A stretch of 64,000 nucleotides of DNA from Negativicutes bacterium (GCA_041666525.1 JBAYGT010000001.1:132014-196013); one strand, 5' to 3'. Counted from the first letter of the stretch, positions 15,236 through 31,594 are shown. Program-made: numbers and translations. The notes: generated by a model from the letters alone, not told the origin.

Positions 15236-15385
15236 ACACACCTCTCAATAATAAAATTGTATACCCAATCAAATAAGTTTAGCGCTCAATAATAAATATG
15301 CATCATGTTGTTTTCTTTATACTCTGCTATAAAACATCCATCCGGTAAGTATTATTCGCCATTTCGCCAACTTTTTTTGTTTCAT

Positions 15386-18300
15386 CTAATTAATCTTTGC
15401 GCGTAACGAACGCTTTAACCGCCATATCTTAATCACCCGGTCGTCACCACCGCTGGCGACCCGCTTATCATCAACGCTGAACGCCACTGCGCACACCCTG
15501 TCTGTATGCCCTTTTAGCACTTCGATTTGATTACCTGAACGAACATCCCAAACAATTACTGTATTATCATCACCGCAACTGGCCAGCATTTCACCTTTAT
15601 GCGAAAAAACTAACGAACGAACTCGTTTGGTATGCCCGACTAAAGATTTCACACGTTCGCCGGTTTTTTGGTTCCATATAATAATATCCCCCCCATCACT
15701 TCCGCTGGCGAGCAAGTAACCGTTGGGATGAAAATCTAAACACCGTACAGCCGCATCATGTCCCGCCAAAGAAATAGACAAACTGCCGTCAAAATTCCAG
15801 ATTTTTACCGACCGGTCACTACTGCAACTGGCAATTTTGCTGCCATCTGGCGAAACGACAACTCCGAAAACTGAAGCAATGTGTCCACGAATTGTTCTTA
15901 TACAACTTTGACTGGCTACATCCCATATACGTATTGAATTGTCACCAGCCGCACTTACCAGTACATTGCCCTCACGAGAAGAGGATACTGCGTAAATAAT
16001 TTGATTATGCCCGACAAGTGTTCCGGTGTTACTGCTATCTTCCATGTTCCACAATCTCAAGACTTTTTCCCACCCGACAGTAACGAGCACTGAACTAACG
16101 CCAAGAAATGTAATTGCCTCAATCGGGTAATTACTTGCCTTAAGCGTTCGGATAAAGCTGCCACTCCGGGCAGACCAAATTTTTGCGGTGCCATCACCGC
16201 TACCAGATGCTAAATATTTTCCATTTTTTGAAAACTTCAGCGCTTCAATCCAATAGTTATGTGCAGCAATAGTGCGTACGCGCGGCTCTTTCACAAAATA
16301 ATAAACAATTAACACAAGTAGCAGCAATAGAACTATTACACTAAATATCAAAACTTTCATATTGCTAAATATTGTTATATTTGATCCGGTATTAGTTTTA
16401 AATAATTTTTGCAGCCACTCGCTACGTCCGTTTTTTTGATTAGCGTACATCCTGTTGAAATCCACGCCAATCTCCTGTGGTTTGGAAATGTTTTGCCCGC
16501 AAACAACACATTTTGAGCCGTTTTCACGCCAGCAAGTAACATGCTGTGGTGATTTGCAATTATCGCAAATTGCAATTACATCGCCTGGGCGGACTTCCTG
16601 GCTACAAAATGCACAAACAGTTTTTTCGGCAAACATTTTTCCATCAGCTGCATATATCATTGAATTTCGCAAATCATTTTGTTCCTGAATGGTGGACAGG
16701 CATTTTTCGGTGTCAATATCCCAAACTTTCTCCGTTCCGTCACCACCAGCACTGATCAACTGCTTACCGTCGTCAGAAAATTGCACATCATTTACCCAGC
16801 GGTCATGTCCGGTCATGGTTTTTTCACATTCGCCGGTTGCGACATTCCAAATCTTTATTTGCTTATCATCACCGCAAGTGGCTAAATGTTTTCCATCAGG
16901 CGAAAACTCTACATCGCGTACCCAAGCATCATGTCCCGTCAAATTATGTTCTTCCTCTCCGGTCTCGGCATCCCAGATTTTCACCGTTGAGTCAAAACTG
17001 CCACTGGCTACTACTTTTCCGTCCGGCGAAAACGCTACTGATTTCACCCAGCCCTTATGTCCTTTCAAATTTTTGGAACTACCGGTAGCTAAATTCCAAA
17101 TTTTTACAGTTTTGTCATCACCACCGGATACCAAACGCTTGCCGTCTTCCGAAAAAGCGACCGAACGCACCAAGTCACTATGTCCAATTAGTGTTTTTAC
17201 CGTTTCTCCACTATCTGCATCGAAAATTTTAATTTCTCCGTTTGTCTGCCCTATGGCAATCAATGTTCCATCATTGGAAACAACCGCGTTCTCCAACCAA
17301 ATATCCCGTCTTGCCATCGCTTTGTCGCATTTCAGTGACGACAGATTCCATTGCTTTATTGTCATACTTTTTCCGGCGGTATAGAGTTTGCTCTCGGATA
17401 AATCTAATGCCAGAACAGTACCTGAATCCTTTCGTCCAGCCAAAAACTGCTTTTTTATGTTGCCATTATTAGAAACGATACTAATTTGACCATCAGCTCC
17501 GGCTATCAAAACTGTCCCATCTTTTTTGACGGCAAGCGCTGATATTTCAATTTGTACCCGGTAACTGTTCACAATTTTACCGAATAGTACATTAATCAAC
17601 ACTATATTACCTGTATTATCCGCAACTGCTACAACGTTATTGTCACTAGACAACGTCAAGTGTTGTGGAGCAAACGGAAGCGCAATTTCTTTTAGCATTT
17701 TCCCAGTTGTAATATCTGTAACAAACACTTTTTTATCATCACTGACCGAAACAATTATATTCTTCTTGTCCATGCCAAGTGCCAATATTTTGCCCTGATG
17801 AATTTTATTTGTCGAACGCACCGCTCCTTGCGATACCTCATATACTGCCAGCTCACCGCTATCATTTCCAACAGCCAATTTATTACCACCGTCAAAACAT
17901 ACAGCCGCTTGTACTCTTTCTTTTCCGCTTTTAAGCGTGCGCAAAAAAGCGCTGTTACTAGTCGAAAACATTTTCGTCTCGCCGCCATTGCCACCGGTAA
18001 CAATGTTGTCAGCATACTTCGGTGTAAACATTACAAAATCAATCGTCTGATCAAAGGCGACGACCTTACTTAACGGCGTCTCACGCCTTATATCCCACAA
18101 CTCAACACTGCCGTCATTCAAACCAGCTGCGAGTTTATTGCCAGTTTCAGTTAACGAAAGTGCTGTAACCTCCGGTTTATTGTTAATAAATTTTTTTATA
18201 ATCCGCAATGGATCTTTACAGATAAAATACCAACCTCCGGCTACCATGAACAACAGTAGGCAAATCGTTAATAAGCCAGCCAGGACCCGTAACCCTTTTC

Positions 18301-18670
18301 TCCGATTCCTTATTATGCGGCTTTTTAAATTACTAATTATTCCCGGATGGTTGATATCACCAACAGAAGTGGAAGCATGCCGCTTCGAATAACAAGAAAA
18401 TACGCTGCACTCGTTTTTTGCATCCCAACACTCTTTATGGTGTGCAGAATGGCAATATGGACACAAAATTCGTTCACTATATTGATCAATTTCATTGCGG
18501 CAACATGGACATAACTCAATATTCGGTTGCATATTAATTTCTGCCAAGTCTTGCGCTTCGTCAATTGGCAATGCCGCTATTTCAGCAATGCCATTTTGAA
18601 ATTCACCGCATATTCGACATTTTTCTTCATTATCCAGCATTTTAGCGCCGCAAAAATTACAATATTTCAT
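15386..18670 (-). CDS. Large membrane protein with two tandem [zinc ribbon – TM helix – WD40 beta-propeller] modules
   Basis: 1094 aa. The N-terminus has a double zinc ribbon (CNFCGAKM..CRICGE; CPCC..CPYCHSAHHKECW..CSVFSC). TM1 is LAGLLTICLLLFMVAGGWYFI. Then come a degenerate propeller and canonical WD40 repeats (GH..WD). A second zinc finger follows (CAFC..CDNCKSPQHVTCW..CVVCGQ). TM2 is VLIFSVIVLLLLLVLIVYYFV. Seven clear WD40 repeats end the protein. Confidence 0.8.
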   Translation of the reverse strand: MKYCNFCGAKMLDNEEKCRICGEFQNGIAEIAALPIDEAQDLAEINMQPNIELCPCCRNEIDQYSERILCPYCHSAHHKECWDAKNECSVFSCYSKRHASTSVGDINHPGIISNLKSRIIRNRRKGLRVLAGLLTICLLLFMVAGGWYFICKDPLRIIKKFINNKPEVTALSLTETGNKLAAGLNDGSVELWDIRRETPLSKVVAFDQTIDFVMFTPKYADNIVTGGNGGETKMFSTSNSAFLRTLKSGKERVQAAVCFDGGNKLAVGNDSGELAVYEVSQGAVRSTNKIHQGKILALGMDKKNIIVSVSDDKKVFVTDITTGKMLKEIALPFAPQHLTLSSDNNVVAVADNTGNIVLINVLFGKIVNSYRVQIEISALAVKKDGTVLIAGADGQISIVSNNGNIKKQFLAGRKDSGTVLALDLSESKLYTAGKSMTIKQWNLSSLKCDKAMARRDIWLENAVVSNDGTLIAIGQTNGEIKIFDADSGETVKTLIGHSDLVRSVAFSEDGKRLVSGGDDKTVKIWNLATGSSKNLKGHKGWVKSVAFSPDGKVVASGSFDSTVKIWDAETGEEEHNLTGHDAWVRDVEFSPDGKHLATCGDDKQIKIWNVATGECEKTMTGHDRWVNDVQFSDDGKQLISAGGDGTEKVWDIDTEKCLSTIQEQNDLRNSMIYAADGKMFAEKTVCAFCSQEVRPGDVIAICDNCKSPQHVTCWRENGSKCVVCGQNISKPQEIGVDFNRMYANQKNGRSEWLQKLFKTNTGSNITIFSNMKVLIFSVIVLLLLLVLIVYYFVKEPRVRTIAAHNYWIEALKFSKNGKYLASGSGDGTAKIWSARSGSFIRTLKASNYPIEAITFLGVSSVLVTVGWEKVLRLWNMEDSSNTGTLVGHNQIIYAVSSSREGNVLVSAAGDNSIRIWDVASQSCIRTIRGHIASVFGVVVSPDGSKIASCSSDRSVKIWNFDGSLSISLAGHDAAVRCLDFHPNGYLLASGSDGGDIIIWNQKTGERVKSLVGHTKRVRSLVFSHKGEMLASCGDDNTVIVWDVRSGNQIEVLKGHTDRVCAVAFSVDDKRVASGGDDRVIKIWRLKRSLRAKIN

Positions 18671-18724
18671 TTTTTTCCTCGCAAAATACTACCTAATGTC
18701 ATTTTACCTTACAACAACTCATTT

Positions 18725-18761
18725 CTCAAACAAAAAAGCCTCAGCAAAACTGCTGCGGCTT
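18725..18761 (-). terminator. Rho-independent terminator downstream of the TGS-kinase gene
   Basis: On the minus strand: AAGCCGCAGCA-GTTT-TGCTGAGGCTT followed by TTTTTTGTTTG. Confidence 0.65.
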
Positions 18762-18782: not shown

Positions 18783-20444
18783 CTATTTGTAAAAACAAGA
18801 ATTCCCGATAAATTCACGAAGTATTGATGTTGGCGGAATATTGCTCTCATCGTCTATCAGGCAGAAATACCCCAAAAATTTCAACAACCGCTGTGCCTCA
18901 TAATACTGAATTTCATCTTTACCAATTTCGGCTAGCAACGGCAACGCGTAACGCCGCAAAACAGCTAATTCGTAAATTAACGCGGAGTTAAACATTACGT
19001 CCGCATCTTCCTGATAAGGAAAAATGTTTTTCTCCTCACCCCGGCGTACCGATTTCCACATTTTCAAAGTATTTAGTGCCGAATTTCCGCGATACTTGTT
19101 ATCGCGAACAATTCGGCGAATCAATCGCGCCTCTGTTGTCGGAATCCGGTTGTGATTATCGATTGAAAGCTGAGTCAGCGCACTGATGTAAATTTTGAAT
19201 TTATTTTTTCGCAAAACCGATGCTGTCAATTTATCATTCAACCCATGAATTCCTTCGATAAGCAACATTTGATCAGCTTTTAACTGAATGCGCCGTTTTC
19301 CTTTGATTCGTCTGCCAGCCTTGAAATCAAAAGTTGGCAACAAAACTTCTTCACCATTTAATAATTGCTGCAAATGCATATTAAATAATTCCAAATCAAT
19401 TGCTTCAAGCGCTTCAAAATCGAATTCGTCTCGTTCGTCCTTCGGCGTACGTTCACGGTCGACAAAATAATCATCCAGTGAAACCGGCACCGGTCGCAAC
19501 CCGTTTACCTGAAGCTGAATCCTTAAACGATTGGCAAATGTCGTCTTTCCCGATGAAGACGGACCGGCAATCAAGACTACCCGTGCATCCGGTTTTGCTA
19601 AAATCGCATCAGCAATTTGAGCGAGTTTCTTTTCATGCAACGCCTCAGCCACTCTGATTATTTCATTAGCGCCGCCATTGGTAATATGCTCGTTAAGATC
19701 TGACAAATAACGGCAATCGAGAATTTTGCCCCATTGCTCAGCTTCGTGAAATACCTGAGCAAGATTGGGTTGATCGACAAAATCCGGCAATCGATCCGGC
19801 TGTGCTTTATCAGGCACCAACAAAACTATACCGCTTGGTGGATAATATTCGAGCGAGAAAACGCGCAAATATTCAGTGTTTGGCACTAATGATCCATAAA
19901 AGTAATCGTAATTATCACCACAAAAATATAAACGTACCTGTTCTAACTCAATTTGCTTGAGCAATTTTATTTTGCTGTGCTGACGCGTCACTTCAAACAT
20001 CTCAATCGCAACCTGTTTATCAACAGCTTTTGAAAAAATCGGTAGTTTTTGAGCAACGATGTCACGCATTTTTTGTTCAATATTTCTAAAGTCGCCGGTT
20101 GTAAGCCTTCTTCCCATAGAAAGTTCGCAATAATAGCCCTTACCAATTGAGTTTCTGATAGAAACATCGCTGTTCTCATATAATTGCTTGACAGCCATTA
20201 CCAATAAAAAAAACACACTTCTAAGATAAACCGTATTACCAATATCCGAACCGGTATCAAATAAATCAAACTCAACATCTTCATTGATTATGGTATTTAA
20301 ACTGGAAATACGTTTGTTTATCGATGCTGCCACAATCGGGTAGTGAAAGTGCCACTTGTATTCTTCGGCAATCAATTGCGCCGAAACACCTTTAGCATAT
20401 TCCCGAACCGTACCGTCGGGAAAAGTCAACTTTATCAAGTCCAT
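18783..20444 (-). CDS. TGS-domain / uridine-kinase-family (PRK-like P-loop) fusion protein
   Basis: 553 aa. The N-terminus has a TGS-like fold (MDLIKLTFPDGTVREY...). The C-terminus has a Walker A motif (LIAGPSSSGKTTFANRL) of the uridine kinase/phosphoribulokinase family. Confidence 0.7.
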   Translation of the reverse strand: MDLIKLTFPDGTVREYAKGVSAQLIAEEYKWHFHYPIVAASINKRISSLNTIINEDVEFDLFDTGSDIGNTVYLRSVFFLLVMAVKQLYENSDVSIRNSIGKGYYCELSMGRRLTTGDFRNIEQKMRDIVAQKLPIFSKAVDKQVAIEMFEVTRQHSKIKLLKQIELEQVRLYFCGDNYDYFYGSLVPNTEYLRVFSLEYYPPSGIVLLVPDKAQPDRLPDFVDQPNLAQVFHEAEQWGKILDCRYLSDLNEHITNGGANEIIRVAEALHEKKLAQIADAILAKPDARVVLIAGPSSSGKTTFANRLRIQLQVNGLRPVPVSLDDYFVDRERTPKDERDEFDFEALEAIDLELFNMHLQQLLNGEEVLLPTFDFKAGRRIKGKRRIQLKADQMLLIEGIHGLNDKLTASVLRKNKFKIYISALTQLSIDNHNRIPTTEARLIRRIVRDNKYRGNSALNTLKMWKSVRRGEEKNIFPYQEDADVMFNSALIYELAVLRRYALPLLAEIGKDEIQYYEAQRLLKFLGYFCLIDDESNIPPTSILREFIGNSCFYK

Positions 20445-28250: not shown

Positions 28251-29693
28251 ATGTTTGAAAAATATCAGCCGACACCTAAAGTATACGATGAAATGTTCAA
28301 CAAAGATGGATCTGTTCGCCCTCACTATACTGAGTTGTACAAAACTTTTGACAAGCTTGACATGAAAAATCTTGCTGCCCGTCAAAACCGTATGGATGAC
28401 GAGATGATAAAGCAGGGCATTACTTTCACGCTGTACAACGAAGATAGTAACGCGCTGGAGCGTACCATTCCTTTTGATATTATTCCAAGAATCATTAGTC
28501 ATGACGACTGGACTTACATGCAACGCGGACTTAAGCAACGCGTAATCGCGCTTAATCGCTTCATTCATGATATTTATCACGAGCAAAGAATTTGCCGAGA
28601 CGGCGTTGTACCCCGCAAACAAATTGTTACTAATAAATACTTTCGTCCTGAGATGATGCACCAAAATGTTCCCGGCGACGTTTATATCTGCTGGTCGGGA
28701 ATTGATTTAATTCGCGCCGGTGACAGCGATTATTATGTACTGGAAGATAATTTGCGGACACCTAGCGGTGTTTCTTATCTATACAAGAATCGCTGGATGA
28801 TGGAAAAACTTTTTCCAGAACTGTTTTTTAATTATCACGTTATGAATTTAGATCGCGGCTTGCACCTGTTCCTGCGCGCATTGCGCAGTATCGCGCCTAA
28901 TAATAATTCTGATCCTACTGTCGTTTTGCTCACGCCCGGACGCTTTAATTCTGCTTATTTTGAGCACACCTTCCTTGCGCAAGAAATGGGACTGATACTG
29001 GCAGAAGGACAAGACTTAAAAGTTGTGAACAATAAAGTTTACCTTAAAACTTTACACGGATTGCGTCAGGTTGACGTAATATATCGGCGAATTGACGATG
29101 ATTTTATTGACCCGTTGGCATTTCGTCCCGATTCAATGCTGGGCGTTCCCGGTTTAATGAACGCATACCGCGCTGGAAACGTCGCTTTAGCCAATGCACC
29201 GGGTACCGGCTTTGCTGACGATAAAGCGGTATATACCTACGTACCGGACATTATCCGTTATTACCTGAACGAAGAACCGATACTGAAAAATGTACCTACC
29301 TATACTTGCGCACTCGAAGATGATCGAAAATTTGTCCTAGATAATATTGAAAAAATGGTTGTAAAGGAAACGTCCCTTTCCGGTGGCTACGGTATGTTAA
29401 TCGGACCGCACGCTACAAAAGAAGAACATGAACAATTTCGGCGGCAAATTTGTGAACGACCGGATGATTATATTGCCCAACCCACAATTCAGCTTTCAGC
29501 AGTACCTACCTTATGTGACGGTGTCATCGCTCCGCGGCGCGTAGATTTGCGTCCATATATTGCATTAGCTGCTAACGAAGAAATCAACATCATTCCGGGT
29601 GGTCTCACGCGCGTTGCGATGCGCGAAGGTTCGCTAGTTGTCAACTCCTCTCAGGGTGGCGGCAGTAAAGATACCTGGGTAATCGAAGAATAA
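28251..29693 (+). CDS. Circularly permuted type-2 ATP-grasp protein
   Basis: 480 aa. It matches the family that forms conserved operons with alpha-E and transglutaminase-like proteins. Confidence 0.75.
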   Translation: MFEKYQPTPKVYDEMFNKDGSVRPHYTELYKTFDKLDMKNLAARQNRMDDEMIKQGITFTLYNEDSNALERTIPFDIIPRIISHDDWTYMQRGLKQRVIALNRFIHDIYHEQRICRDGVVPRKQIVTNKYFRPEMMHQNVPGDVYICWSGIDLIRAGDSDYYVLEDNLRTPSGVSYLYKNRWMMEKLFPELFFNYHVMNLDRGLHLFLRALRSIAPNNNSDPTVVLLTPGRFNSAYFEHTFLAQEMGLILAEGQDLKVVNNKVYLKTLHGLRQVDVIYRRIDDDFIDPLAFRPDSMLGVPGLMNAYRAGNVALANAPGTGFADDKAVYTYVPDIIRYYLNEEPILKNVPTYTCALEDDRKFVLDNIEKMVVKETSLSGGYGMLIGPHATKEEHEQFRRQICERPDDYIAQPTIQLSAVPTLCDGVIAPRRVDLRPYIALAANEEINIIPGGLTRVAMREGSLVVNSSQGGGSKDTWVIEE

Positions 29694-29708
29694 TAGTTTG
29701 GAGGTCTT

Positions 29709-30683
29709 ATGATAAATGTCCGTGTCGCAGAATCAATTTATTGGACCGGTCGTTACACCGAAAGAATTATAAATCACACTAATCTTATCGATGTCAGTTT
29801 TCATAGTTACCTAAGCTGGACTGAAAACACTGATCTTCAAAACAACTTATGGCAACGATTGTTGAGCGTTCTTGGTGAAGCCGATGCTTATTGGGATAGA
29901 TATAACTCTCTAAACACCCGTCATGTACTTAACTTCTTGACGCTTGACCGAACTTACGGCAATTCGATTATTTCTTGCGCAAGTAGTGCACGCGAAAATG
30001 TGCGTGCGATCCGTCAGGAATTACCCACGCCGTTGTGGGAAACGATAAATAGTTTTCACCTATGGTTGACTGCTGAAAGTCAGTCCAAACGGATTTTTGC
30101 GTCCGACTTCAAACCCTATGATTTTTACAAGGGAATAAAACAAGCAGTAACATTGTTCCATGGCATTGCTGAAACTACCATGATAAGAGATGAAGAATGG
30201 CGTTTGTTGCAATTGGGTCGCTATATTGAGCGCGCCGAGAACATTTCGCGGTTAGTGTTAATGATGCACCGTAACACTTTAGAAATGCGGCAGAATATAA
30301 CCAACAACCGTTATCATCAGTTGACTGCAGCGCTTCGTGCTGTCGACGGATTGGAATCCTACCGGAAAATCAACGCTGATCGCGTCAGTTTGGCTGCCGC
30401 TGCCGCATTTCTTGTCGGACAACCACTTTTTCCGCGGTCGATACATTATAGTTTGACAATTTTTAGAAGAAATTTACTTGCGTTAGCCGCTCCAGCCGAG
30501 AATCTGCAATATTCGCCATTGGCGGATGTTGATGCACTGCTTGAGAAAATTGATGCCTACCGTGAGGAGGACTACAACCTTGATAGTCTCCCAGATATGG
30601 TTTGGAGTTTTCTTATTGCTTTAAATGTTATTGGAACAAAAGTTTACAAAACATATTTTCATGAGGTCGATACTATTCTATGA
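29709..30683 (+). CDS. Alpha-E domain protein
   Basis: 324 aa, all-helical prediction. It sits in the canonical position between the CP-ATP-grasp and transglutaminase genes. Its stop overlaps the next start (ATGA). Confidence 0.7.
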   Translation: MINVRVAESIYWTGRYTERIINHTNLIDVSFHSYLSWTENTDLQNNLWQRLLSVLGEADAYWDRYNSLNTRHVLNFLTLDRTYGNSIISCASSARENVRAIRQELPTPLWETINSFHLWLTAESQSKRIFASDFKPYDFYKGIKQAVTLFHGIAETTMIRDEEWRLLQLGRYIERAENISRLVLMMHRNTLEMRQNITNNRYHQLTAALRAVDGLESYRKINADRVSLAAAAAFLVGQPLFPRSIHYSLTIFRRNLLALAAPAENLQYSPLADVDALLEKIDAYREEDYNLDSLPDMVWSFLIALNVIGTKVYKTYFHEVDTIL

Positions 30684-31594
30684 AATTGAAAATCATGCAT
30701 CTCAACGAATATAGTTATGGTAATTTCATTACCGACGATGACAAAGAAACACATTTAGAACCTACTCTCATTGATAATAGTATCAACGAACTTCGGTTGA
30801 AACCACGCACTAATTATCGCCAGCACCTCGAATACTTTGATTTGCGAACTTCTCCTGCAGCTCCGGTTCGTTGGCATAAGGACTATTTTCATAGTGATAT
30901 AGCTTGTTTTGAAATAGTAGAACCGCACGACCAACTTGCTATTATTACAACTTCAGTAGTTTTAACCGCGGAAAACGAACCACGTTCCGGTTATGTTCTC
31001 AAACCAGAAGATGAACGGGCATTATTAAACTCTTCGCAATTTCAAAATCGGTATGCGGAATATTTATATATGACACCACAAACTCTTATTACTAAATCGG
31101 TAGCTGAGTATCTTAAAGATTTATATAGCCAGTGTTCTACTTCATGCATCTACGATTATGTACGCAGCCTCACTCATCAGATTCATGAAACGTTTCTGTA
31201 TCAGCCTGGATTAACCAATATCCACACAACTGTCGATGACACCGTGCGGTTAAAGGGCGGTGTCTGTCAAGACTTTGCTCACTTAATGCTGGCAACCTGC
31301 CGCAATATCGGCGTTCCCGCGCGTTATGTCAGCGGTTATCAATACATCGGCGATCTTCCGGAAAATGTTGGCAACGATAACTTGACTGTTGCTATGCATG
31401 CCTGGATTGAAGCATTTATTCCCGGCGCTGGTTGGCTGGGCTTTGATCCGACCAATGATAACATCATGAGTTGGCGGTATGTGAAGGTTGCAGACGGCCG
31501 AGATTATAGCGATATTGTTCCAATAAAAGGGGTATATCGCGGTAGTGCAATCCAAACTCTAAACGTAAAGGTTAAAATTGACAAACTTGATTAA
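30680..31594 (+). CDS. Transglutaminase-like cysteine protease-fold protein (TGc core with bacterial N-terminal domain)
   Basis: 304 aa. The Cys-His-Asp triad is intact: GGVCQDFAHL, HAWIEAF, GFDPTND. Confidence 0.8.
   Translation: MKLKIMHLNEYSYGNFITDDDKETHLEPTLIDNSINELRLKPRTNYRQHLEYFDLRTSPAAPVRWHKDYFHSDIACFEIVEPHDQLAIITTSVVLTAENEPRSGYVLKPEDERALLNSSQFQNRYAEYLYMTPQTLITKSVAEYLKDLYSQCSTSCIYDYVRSLTHQIHETFLYQPGLTNIHTTVDDTVRLKGGVCQDFAHLMLATCRNIGVPARYVSGYQYIGDLPENVGNDNLTVAMHAWIEAFIPGAGWLGFDPTNDNIMSWRYVKVADGRDYSDIVPIKGVYRGSAIQTLNVKVKIDKLD

Follow-up and report, generated by a model that had tools for sequence, protein, structure and literature searches.

In a stretch of 64,000 nucleotides from a Negativicutes bacterium (this whole stretch being the window in what follows), a gene at 15386..18670 on the minus strand, where all its features given below also lie, encodes a 1094-aa protein in which a single module, composed of a RING finger, one transmembrane (TM) helix and WD40 repeats, is present twice, head to tail. 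The gene is a complete, uninterrupted open reading frame (ORF) with an ATG start, and its product is 100% identical to the NCBI entry 'MAG: RING finger protein [Negativicutes bacterium]' (MFA6074473.1 / MFA6537906.1). To our reading, with about an even chance of being correct, this is a non-enzymatic two-pass scaffold that has both termini in the cytoplasm (N-in/C-in) and displays a RING and a propeller on each face of the membrane. The domains, the single-module architecture and the name given by NCBI are already known; the novelty lies in a conserved doubling of the module, head to tail and with one TM helix per copy, and in the extracytoplasmic position that this implies for one RING. That the same module occurs twice in one protein had been noted in a first-pass annotation made from the sequence, and is borne out by two fingers of the same Pfam family, each with one hydrophobic helix and then WD40 repeats.

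The window protein was compared with four full-length orthologs of 1084-1094 aa obtained from ENA, NCBI and Logan assemblies, which together make up the set of five orthologs used throughout. The four are 60-68% identical to the window protein over the full length, and the alignment is nearly gap-free, a few short gaps being present only in P0005, the most divergent of them. As a Pfam scan of the whole protein was dominated by WD40/β-propeller families, the two non-propeller segments were scanned separately. Both Cys-rich fingers match PF14446, Prok-RING_1 ('Prokaryotic RING finger family 1', gathering score 29.1 bits): RING1 (aa 53-96, 18383..18514) with E 9e-7 and 29.2 bits, a borderline value against that cutoff, and RING2 (match to aa 686-724, domain aa 686-726, 16493..16615) with E 1.7e-9 and 37.9 bits. 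PF14446 is also included in the precomputed Pfam lists of all five orthologs.

The ligands of RING1 (C54, C57, C70, C73, H78 or H77, C81, C88 and C93) and of RING2 (C686, C689, C702, C705, H710, C713, C721 and C724) are all invariant in the five orthologs, as are C4, C7, C18 and C21 of an N-terminal C4 zinc ribbon (aa 3-22, 18605..18664) that weakly matches Pfam Zn_Ribbon_1 (E 0.006) and is found in module 1 only, being missing from module 2. From these ligands, both RINGs and the ribbon are predicted to bind zinc. The fingers have in common the motif C-x2-C-x12-C-x2-C-x4-H-x2-C-W-x6/7-C-x2/4-C, which is in C4HC3 order with a Trp after the sixth ligand, and they differ in the last ligand pair, which is C-x2-C in RING2 and C-x4-C in RING1. 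The same ligand columns vary hardly, if at all, across 67 and 115 sequences of the family, and the window holds just two such RING motifs, both in this gene. Prokaryotic RINGs are typically of the C4HC3 order (PMC11354881). An AlphaFold2 (AF2) model of RING2 (aa 676-740, from a 67-sequence family alignment) reached a predicted local distance difference test score (pLDDT) of 82, with the core >90, and its best Foldseek matches were the RINGs of Ring1B, RNF12, Rad18 and RNF13, the PHD6 of MLL3 and the ZZ domain of p62 (probability 0.9-0.99, TM-score 0.45-0.62, E 0.02-0.1). The model fits a binuclear C4HC3 RING/PHD-like cross-brace treble clef for these fingers. Sequence searches of the PDB gave only marginal matches to PHD, B-box and RING domains, and no structure of a family member has been solved. 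The first-pass label of zinc ribbon for both fingers thus named the wrong family, given the PF14446 matches and the RING/PHD folds retrieved by the RING2 model; the motif proposed along with it, C-x2-C...C-x2-C-x3-H-x2-CW, is indeed common to both copies, save that the spacer before His-x2-CW is x4 and not x3.

The two modules have one TM helix each, as had been proposed from the sequence. TM helix 1 (aa 127-151, 18218..18292; Kyte-Doolittle 2.33) begins 31 residues past RING1 and TM helix 2 (aa 771-793, 16292..16360; Kyte-Doolittle 3.22) 45 residues past RING2, with ~620 residues separating the two. Beyond these peaks no Kyte-Doolittle value exceeds 1.5 anywhere in the protein, and on a Hessa-type scale each of the five orthologs has exactly two 19-residue windows with negative insertion energy, the next best, in a β-strand of a propeller, being +5.5 or worse. 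Hence additional hidden TM helices, which the first-pass annotation had feared it might have missed, can be ruled out, and since the hydrophobic stretches are just 23-25 residues long, neither can be a two-helix hairpin of the kind seen in P0110 and P0188 (see below). In both helices hydrophobicity is conserved among the orthologs while the sequence varies, the typical pattern of TM anchors. A conserved cluster of 4-7 Lys/Arg stands immediately N-terminal of TM1, and a conserved K/R-E/Q-P-R-V/M-R-T immediately C-terminal of TM2.

Over the whole protein, the Pfam WD40 family (PF00400) matches with E 5.7e-122 in 11 stretches, and a hidden Markov model of the repeat likewise recovers 11 strong WD40 repeats plus degenerate ones. 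Propeller 1 (aa 168-455, with blades at 168-453; 17306..18169) comprises seven degenerate WD40-like blades with repeat scores of -2.5 to 9.7 bits, and propeller 2 (aa 462-663, 16682..17287) five repeats, of which one is divergent (12 bits) and four are canonical (65-80 bits). The latter is followed by a near-invariant half WD40 repeat at the junction of the modules, NDLRNSMIYAADGKMFAEK (aa 664-685, 16616..16681), that contains the invariant M679. The description of module 1 as having a degenerate and a canonical propeller therefore stands as to the two kinds, the canonical one having only 5.5 repeats (five and a half). In module 2, propeller 3 (aa 798-1088, 15407..16279) has the seven clean repeats that had been seen, all of them canonical with 51-68 bits; its first strand starts only five residues past TM2, so that this propeller must sit right on the membrane surface. 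A full-length AF2 model (mean pLDDT 71, predicted template modelling score (pTM) 0.40) gives 28 + 20 + 28 strands in the propellers at pLDDT 75-92, in line with the four-stranded blades into which WD40 repeats of about 42 residues with GH...WD signatures fold, with the RING, linker and TM regions below 50, and Foldseek matched it to generic tandem WD40 propellers only, e.g. 2ymu. The AF2 confidence is low for the junction half repeat, which may close the five-bladed propeller, dock RING2, or mark with M679 the start of an ancestral second gene.

Conservation is highest precisely where the two modules meet. Mean pairwise identity among the five orthologs is 0.90 at the junction (aa 661-685), 0.85 in RING2, 0.81 in propeller 2, 0.76 in propeller 3 and 0.72 in RING1; it falls to 0.49 in propeller 1, which with the adjoining TM1 and linker is the least conserved structured part, and only the linker at aa 26-52 (0.31) lies below it. 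A check of the orthologous loci for a stop codon near aa 680, as the first-pass annotation had advised, found none in any of the four, nor a separate gene at that point, and the frame is continuous in all five sequences. Codon alignments of the junction with the four orthologous loci gave a proportion of non-synonymous differences (pN) of 0.06-0.09 against a proportion of synonymous differences (pS) of 0.66-0.99, the synonymous sites being saturated. Such a low pN next to a saturated pS implies a continuous frame under strong purifying selection, and thereby excludes an artefact of assembly or sequencing. The first-pass annotation had considered an error of sequencing or assembly around 16,600-16,650. 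The idea that such an error, or a frameshift, has made one gene out of two adjacent paralogous ones draws some credit from P0152 (see below), where such joining seems to have happened within the RING-TM family; with five independent assemblies agreeing on the frame and the junction being the best conserved part of the protein, it has next to no chance of being true here.

The fusion is an old one. The RING-TM heads 1 and 2 are 30% identical, over 30 aa only, and each is nearer to the heads of other proteins of the family (up to 30-49% identity) than to its partner; the head alignments to the single-module proteins P0094 and P0107 continue through the TM helix. These comparisons point to two members of one RING-TM family that had diverged before they were fused end to end, and this fusion dates far back, as the heads are just 30% identical, all orthologs are fused, and synonymous sites between the orthologs are saturated. 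A recent duplication is ruled out by the same low identity of the heads, and the recent in-frame fusion of paralogs that had been suggested does not survive these observations.

The architecture is rare. In an exhaustive search of 1.84 billion representative proteins with a profile of aa 655-800, which runs from the last part of propeller 2 through RING2 and the linker to TM2, a single cluster, the ortholog group itself, matched over the whole length, while the other 115 matches cover just the RING or the WD40 tail; PF14446 is present in 99 of these 115 representative matches. The protein is encoded by one of 185,579 species-representative genomes, the source of P0003. A scan of JGI metagenomes with the junction alignment found no relatives, and one with the full alignment returned three loci, two of them on eukaryote-like contigs with generic WD40 similarity only and the third weak and partial. 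A literature search on bacterial RING-WD40 membrane proteins yielded nothing relevant. In the usual layout of the relatives an N-terminal RING is followed 30-60 residues on by one or two TM helices and then by a variable C-terminal region. Thus, P0187 (529 aa) is RING-TM-WD40, P0094 has a head very like module 1 in the arrangement zinc ribbon-RING-TM-MORN, P0114 is RING-ribbons-TM-Big_2, P0151 is RING-TM-AhpC/TlpA-like redoxin and P0168 is RING-TM-DUF4352. RING and WD40 domains without any TM helix are combined in P0143, P0176, P0189, P0171 and P0191; such soluble relatives indicate that the two can work together in one compartment. Relatives of either half mostly carry one module, and no close single-module relative of either was found.

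Relatives with several RINGs are common. Among P0092, P0093, P0096 and P0175 there are rows of three or four Prok-RING_1 fingers, some of them flanked by TM helices at one end and some not, and RING-TM heads on MORN, Big_2, TlpA/AhpC-like redoxin or DUF4352 also occur. Membrane helices between RINGs are seen in four cases only, P0110, P0188, P0152 and the present family, and a single TM helix between two RINGs is, among the 115 representative matches, found in the present family only. P0110 and P0188 are both of the form 2 x [RING - two-TM hairpin - domain], and so resemble our protein in repeating a whole module in one polypeptide; with two TM helices per module, however, every one of their RINGs falls on one side, whereas here there is one helix per module. 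P0152 (1072 aa, from a high-GC organism) has two RING-TM-unknown-domain modules linked by an Arg/Pro/Gly-rich joint that resembles out-of-frame translation, and its second module opens with MSELQERERLIANPRCPYCHEDV, echoing the N terminus of P0152 itself; a frameshift or a mistake in gene calling has probably turned two tandem paralogs into one sequence here. Judged from these sequences, tandem paralogs and module duplication recur in the Prok-RING_1 family.

With exactly two spanning helices, the N-terminal 126 residues (ribbon and RING1) and propeller 3 have to share one side of the membrane, and the ~620-residue middle, with the double propeller and RING2, has to lie on the opposite side. 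The topological logic of the first-pass annotation, a finger and a propeller on each side, hence holds for all orthologs. Regarding which side is which, N-in/C-in is favoured by the size of the N-terminal region together with its zinc-binding domains, and by the Lys/Arg cluster that precedes TM1 and the K-E-P-R-V-R-T that follows TM2. The relatives point the same way: the Big_2, TlpA/AhpC-like redoxin and DUF4352 domains that follow the TM helix are typically extracytoplasmic, which suggests that single-module relatives have the RING inside and the C-terminal domain outside, and this in turn supports N-in for module 1. Negativicutes, the label under which NCBI lists the source of the window, are a double-membraned (diderm) lineage, so that the orientation predicted from these sequence features would place RING2 in the periplasm.

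We accordingly picture a two-pass helical hairpin in the cytoplasmic membrane, without a catalytic domain, in which the ribbon, RING1 and the seven-bladed propeller 3 would face the cytoplasm, and the ~12-blade double propeller with RING2, that is the fast-evolving propeller 1 and the highly constrained block of propeller 2 and RING2, would face the periplasm. Propellers and RINGs would bind partner proteins or peptides on both faces, and a binding event or assembly on one face might be tied to the other. We infer such a scaffold or adaptor function because the protein lacks a catalytic domain, has neither conserved neighbours nor conjugation genes in its vicinity, and is built entirely of domains of protein- or peptide-binding kinds. 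The proposed topology would recreate on each face of the membrane the RING-WD40 pairing of the soluble relatives. Somewhat short of even odds is the further proposition that in this diderm Firmicute a RING works outside the cytoplasm, with one RING and WD40 pair in the periplasm and a second in the cytoplasm joined by the two-helix hairpin; this would be a coupler without known counterpart, and its periplasmic finger the first extracytoplasmic member of the RING/PHD class.

Several points weigh against this scaffold with an exported RING. The positive-inside signal at TM1 is weak, since the C-terminal flank also holds 3-6 Lys/Arg. Among the 115 representative matches no genuine protein clearly puts a RING outside the cytoplasm; relatives with several RINGs have them all on one side or use the two-TM hairpin of P0110 and P0188, and P0152, the apparent exception, looks frameshift-derived. 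A periplasmic eight-ligand Cys/His finger would thus have no clear counterpart among these matches. The full-length AF2 model is weak in the RING, linker and TM regions (as reflected in its pTM) and silent on domain packing. Finally, a ubiquitin-like (Ubl) conjugation system may lie beyond the 64 kb of genome covered.

Some of these points lend themselves to other explanations. If one frame gave rise to two proteins, through an internal start at M679 or through processing before insertion that frees module 2, RING2 would be cytoplasmic and propeller 3 outside, and neither RING would be exported, in keeping with the relatives, which appear to hold their RINGs in the cytoplasm. M679 and the neighbouring MIYAADGKMFAEK are invariant, M679 lies seven residues ahead of RING2 much as M1 precedes the first finger, GATGGAAAAATG ahead of M679 is faintly like the true start GAGGAAAAAAATG, and head 2 aligns to the N-terminal heads of single-module proteins from a few residues before the first Cys. 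On the other hand, M1 is preceded by a conserved Shine-Dalgarno-like GCGAGGA (18676..18682, 5-6 nt ahead of the ATG, kept in 5/5 orthologs), whereas M679 has no real Shine-Dalgarno sequence before it, only a GGA/GGG that stems from a Gly codon; the synonymous positions near M679 vary freely, leaving a conserved internal ribosome-binding site there unsupported, and no ortholog interrupts the frame at this point. Moreover, full-length protein would still be produced, and cleavage after insertion would leave the topology unchanged. We regard this explanation as unlikely. Rather unlikely too is a different topology for the intact protein, be it an inverted N-out one, with RING1 and propeller 3 outside and propellers 1-2 and RING2 inside, or one in which a helix does not span and all soluble domains are cytoplasmic. 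The weak charge bias of TM1, positive on both flanks, would allow this, and with inversion the best conserved block, propeller 2 and RING2, would stay cytoplasmic and module 2 would be oriented canonically. It would, however, entail export of a 126-residue N-tail with two zinc-binding domains and 4-7 Lys/Arg, which by the rules of N-tail translocation is very unusual, and a non-spanning helix is at odds with the clearly negative insertion energy of both helices in the five orthologs and with their TM-anchor pattern.

A further view is that the protein serves a prokaryotic Ubl conjugation system as its membrane-bound RING E3 ligase, with WD40 propellers that recruit substrates as in eukaryotic RING/U-box-WD40 ligases. 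Consistent with this, both fingers belong to Prok-RING_1, the modelled fold is like that of the E2-binding RINGs of Ring1B, RNF12, Rad18 and RNF13, the pairing of RING and WD40 recurs in relatives, and RING E3 components of prokaryotic Ubl systems have been described (PMC7159879, citing Burroughs et al. 2011). Against this, no Ubl, E1, E2 or JAB gene was found among the annotated genes up to 10 kb away in the four orthologous loci or among the six flanking genes of the window, the neighbours are not conserved, and by the predicted topology one RING would be extracytoplasmic, in a place where ATP-dependent conjugation is impossible. Furthermore, a role related to ubiquitin is not general to prokaryotic RINGs, as such functions are not shared by all of them (PMC4029887, citing Burroughs et al. 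2011). The protein is probably not a ubiquitin-type E3 ligase, and the full proposal is very unlikely in our view.

Comparison with better-known systems helps to place the predicted two-faced scaffold. Prok-RING_1 is 'characterized by a transmembrane domain' (PMC4029887, citing Burroughs et al. 2011), and membrane proteins of the family, such as the 61-aa RBAM_017410 of Bacillus amyloliquefaciens FZB42 (PMC4029887), have the same C4HC3 finger with the Trp after the sixth ligand. As in those proteins, the RING is here followed by a TM helix 30-50 residues on, and no ubiquitin-system genes are required nearby. Unlike the other Prok-RING_1 members in this analysis, which have one N-terminal RING-TM head or several RINGs on one side, the present protein has two full heads with a single TM helix and ~530 residues of propeller between them, and this single helix forces one RING to the opposite face. 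P0187, P0094 and the soluble RING-WD40 relatives share the same type of head, and P0094 also the N-terminal ribbon and a ...CW.ENGSKC motif; P0187 and the soluble relatives further share the RING-WD40 pairing itself. The single-module relatives differ in having one module, in belonging to other lineages, and in being similar in the head only. Among eukaryotic proteins, COP1, TRAF7 and Prp19 join a RING or U-box to a substrate-binding WD40 propeller as RING and WD40 are joined here, and the PA-TM-RING ligase RNF13 (PDB 5zbu, one of the Foldseek matches) has a membrane-tethered RING with a protein-binding domain across the membrane, as proposed here. These ligases, however, work with E2 and ubiquitin, whereas the present protein has no linked conjugation machinery and another domain order, and its likeness to eukaryotic RING ligases is at the level of the fold only (Foldseek E 0.02-0.1). 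Zinc-finger anti-sigma factors are laid out in the same general way, a small zinc-binding domain in the cytoplasm being joined by a single TM helix to a domain outside, a resemblance that suggests signalling across the membrane; our protein differs from them in having neither the H-x3-C-x2-C motif nor a zf-HC2 Pfam match, nor an adjacent gene for an extracytoplasmic function (ECF) sigma factor. STAND/NLR-like or kinase-linked WD40 proteins of bacterial conflict and signalling have a NACHT/NB-ARC/AAA or Ser/Thr kinase domain fused or next to the WD40 array, and neither occurs in the protein or adjacent to it, where the genes are of metabolism or transport. With their defining domains and neighbours missing, an anti-sigma factor, a STAND/kinase system and a defence system are all ruled out; the sole PADLOC match of the protein, HEAT-ARM_XIII, reflects generic WD40 similarity, and no NCBIfam model reached its cutoff for it.

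No neighbour is conserved across the window and the four orthologous loci. In the window, the gene is preceded upstream by a uridine-kinase-family (PRK) gene and then PiT and PhoU_div, and followed downstream by a DAGK/YegS-type lipid kinase, a PdxA-family dehydrogenase and an MGH1-like glycoside hydrolase; in the orthologous loci a PRK-like gene or an amino-acid permease lies upstream and a convergent SBP_bac_5 gene downstream. This convergent gene of ~526 aa (L001 13337-14917, L003 13349-14929, L005 3528-5105, L007 4058-5647), annotated as SBP_bac_5 (peptide-binding protein) in three of the four loci, stands between the RING-WD40 gene and the next downstream gene, which is DAGK/YegS in L001, L003 and L007 and a Phe-tRNA synthetase gene in L005. 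In its place the window has just 144 bp (15242-15385), as if the gene had been lost from, or never inserted in, this lineage. The varying upstream neighbour, the missing SBP_bac_5 gene and the want of a conserved partner fit the earlier view of the gene as a solo unit. The claim that no kinase, NTPase or sigma-factor gene is adjacent is right for signalling kinases, NTPases and sigma factors, none of which is near in the window or the four loci, and wrong insofar as the flanking PRK and DAGK/YegS genes are metabolic kinases. The upstream neighbour (18783-20444, minus strand) encodes 553 aa, of which only residues 290-487 form the uridine-kinase/PRK domain, and no Pfam family matches its long N-terminal region at E <= 1e-5.

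Upstream of the start codon a sigma-70-like promoter match, TTGAGA-17-TAAAAT (18701..18729), agrees with the consensus at 10 of 12 positions, and a weak terminator-like hairpin with a 5-bp stem lies at 18755-18742. Both are consensus matches only, and as counts of promoter-like and terminator-like sites are no higher than in shuffled sequence, the promoter of its own and the upstream terminator that the first-pass annotation had assigned are not upheld. A scan of the window showed no terminator-like site past the 3' end of the gene, and an Rfam scan of the window gave no match. On the plus strand, a Ser/Pro/Phe-rich ORF of 231 aa (16689-17384) lies antisense to the canonical WD40 repeats and, rather than being a gene, most likely just follows mechanically from the repetitive sequence. 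About 50 of the 64 ORFs of at least 150 aa in the window are on the minus strand, most of those on the plus strand overlapping larger minus-strand ORFs, and GC skew stays near -0.2 all along, save at 28-32 kb (about -0.03), where three consecutive plus-strand ORFs form an island (28251-31594); so strong a strand bias is in keeping with an arm of a Bacillota chromosome that is read opposite to replication.

The practical weight of these findings is limited, resting as they do on just five sequences, which come from genomes of uncultured Negativicutes/Bacillota and from metagenome assemblies, with no linked partners and no phenotype. To our knowledge RING fingers are regarded as intracellular modules, and we know of no experimentally shown function for prokaryotic RING family 1. 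Here nature has provided an experiment: a fusion has been kept by selection although, if the usual rules of insertion apply, it would export a fully conserved zinc finger of eight ligands along with a highly conserved propeller. If the proposed topology is true, the periplasm of an anaerobic diderm bacterium is a place in which a RING-type finger can fold and be active, and this would suggest the binding of peptides or proteins, rather than Ubl ligation, as the basic role of the family. The protein would then also provide a simple model for how the fusion of tandem paralogs can invert the topology of a membrane protein module.

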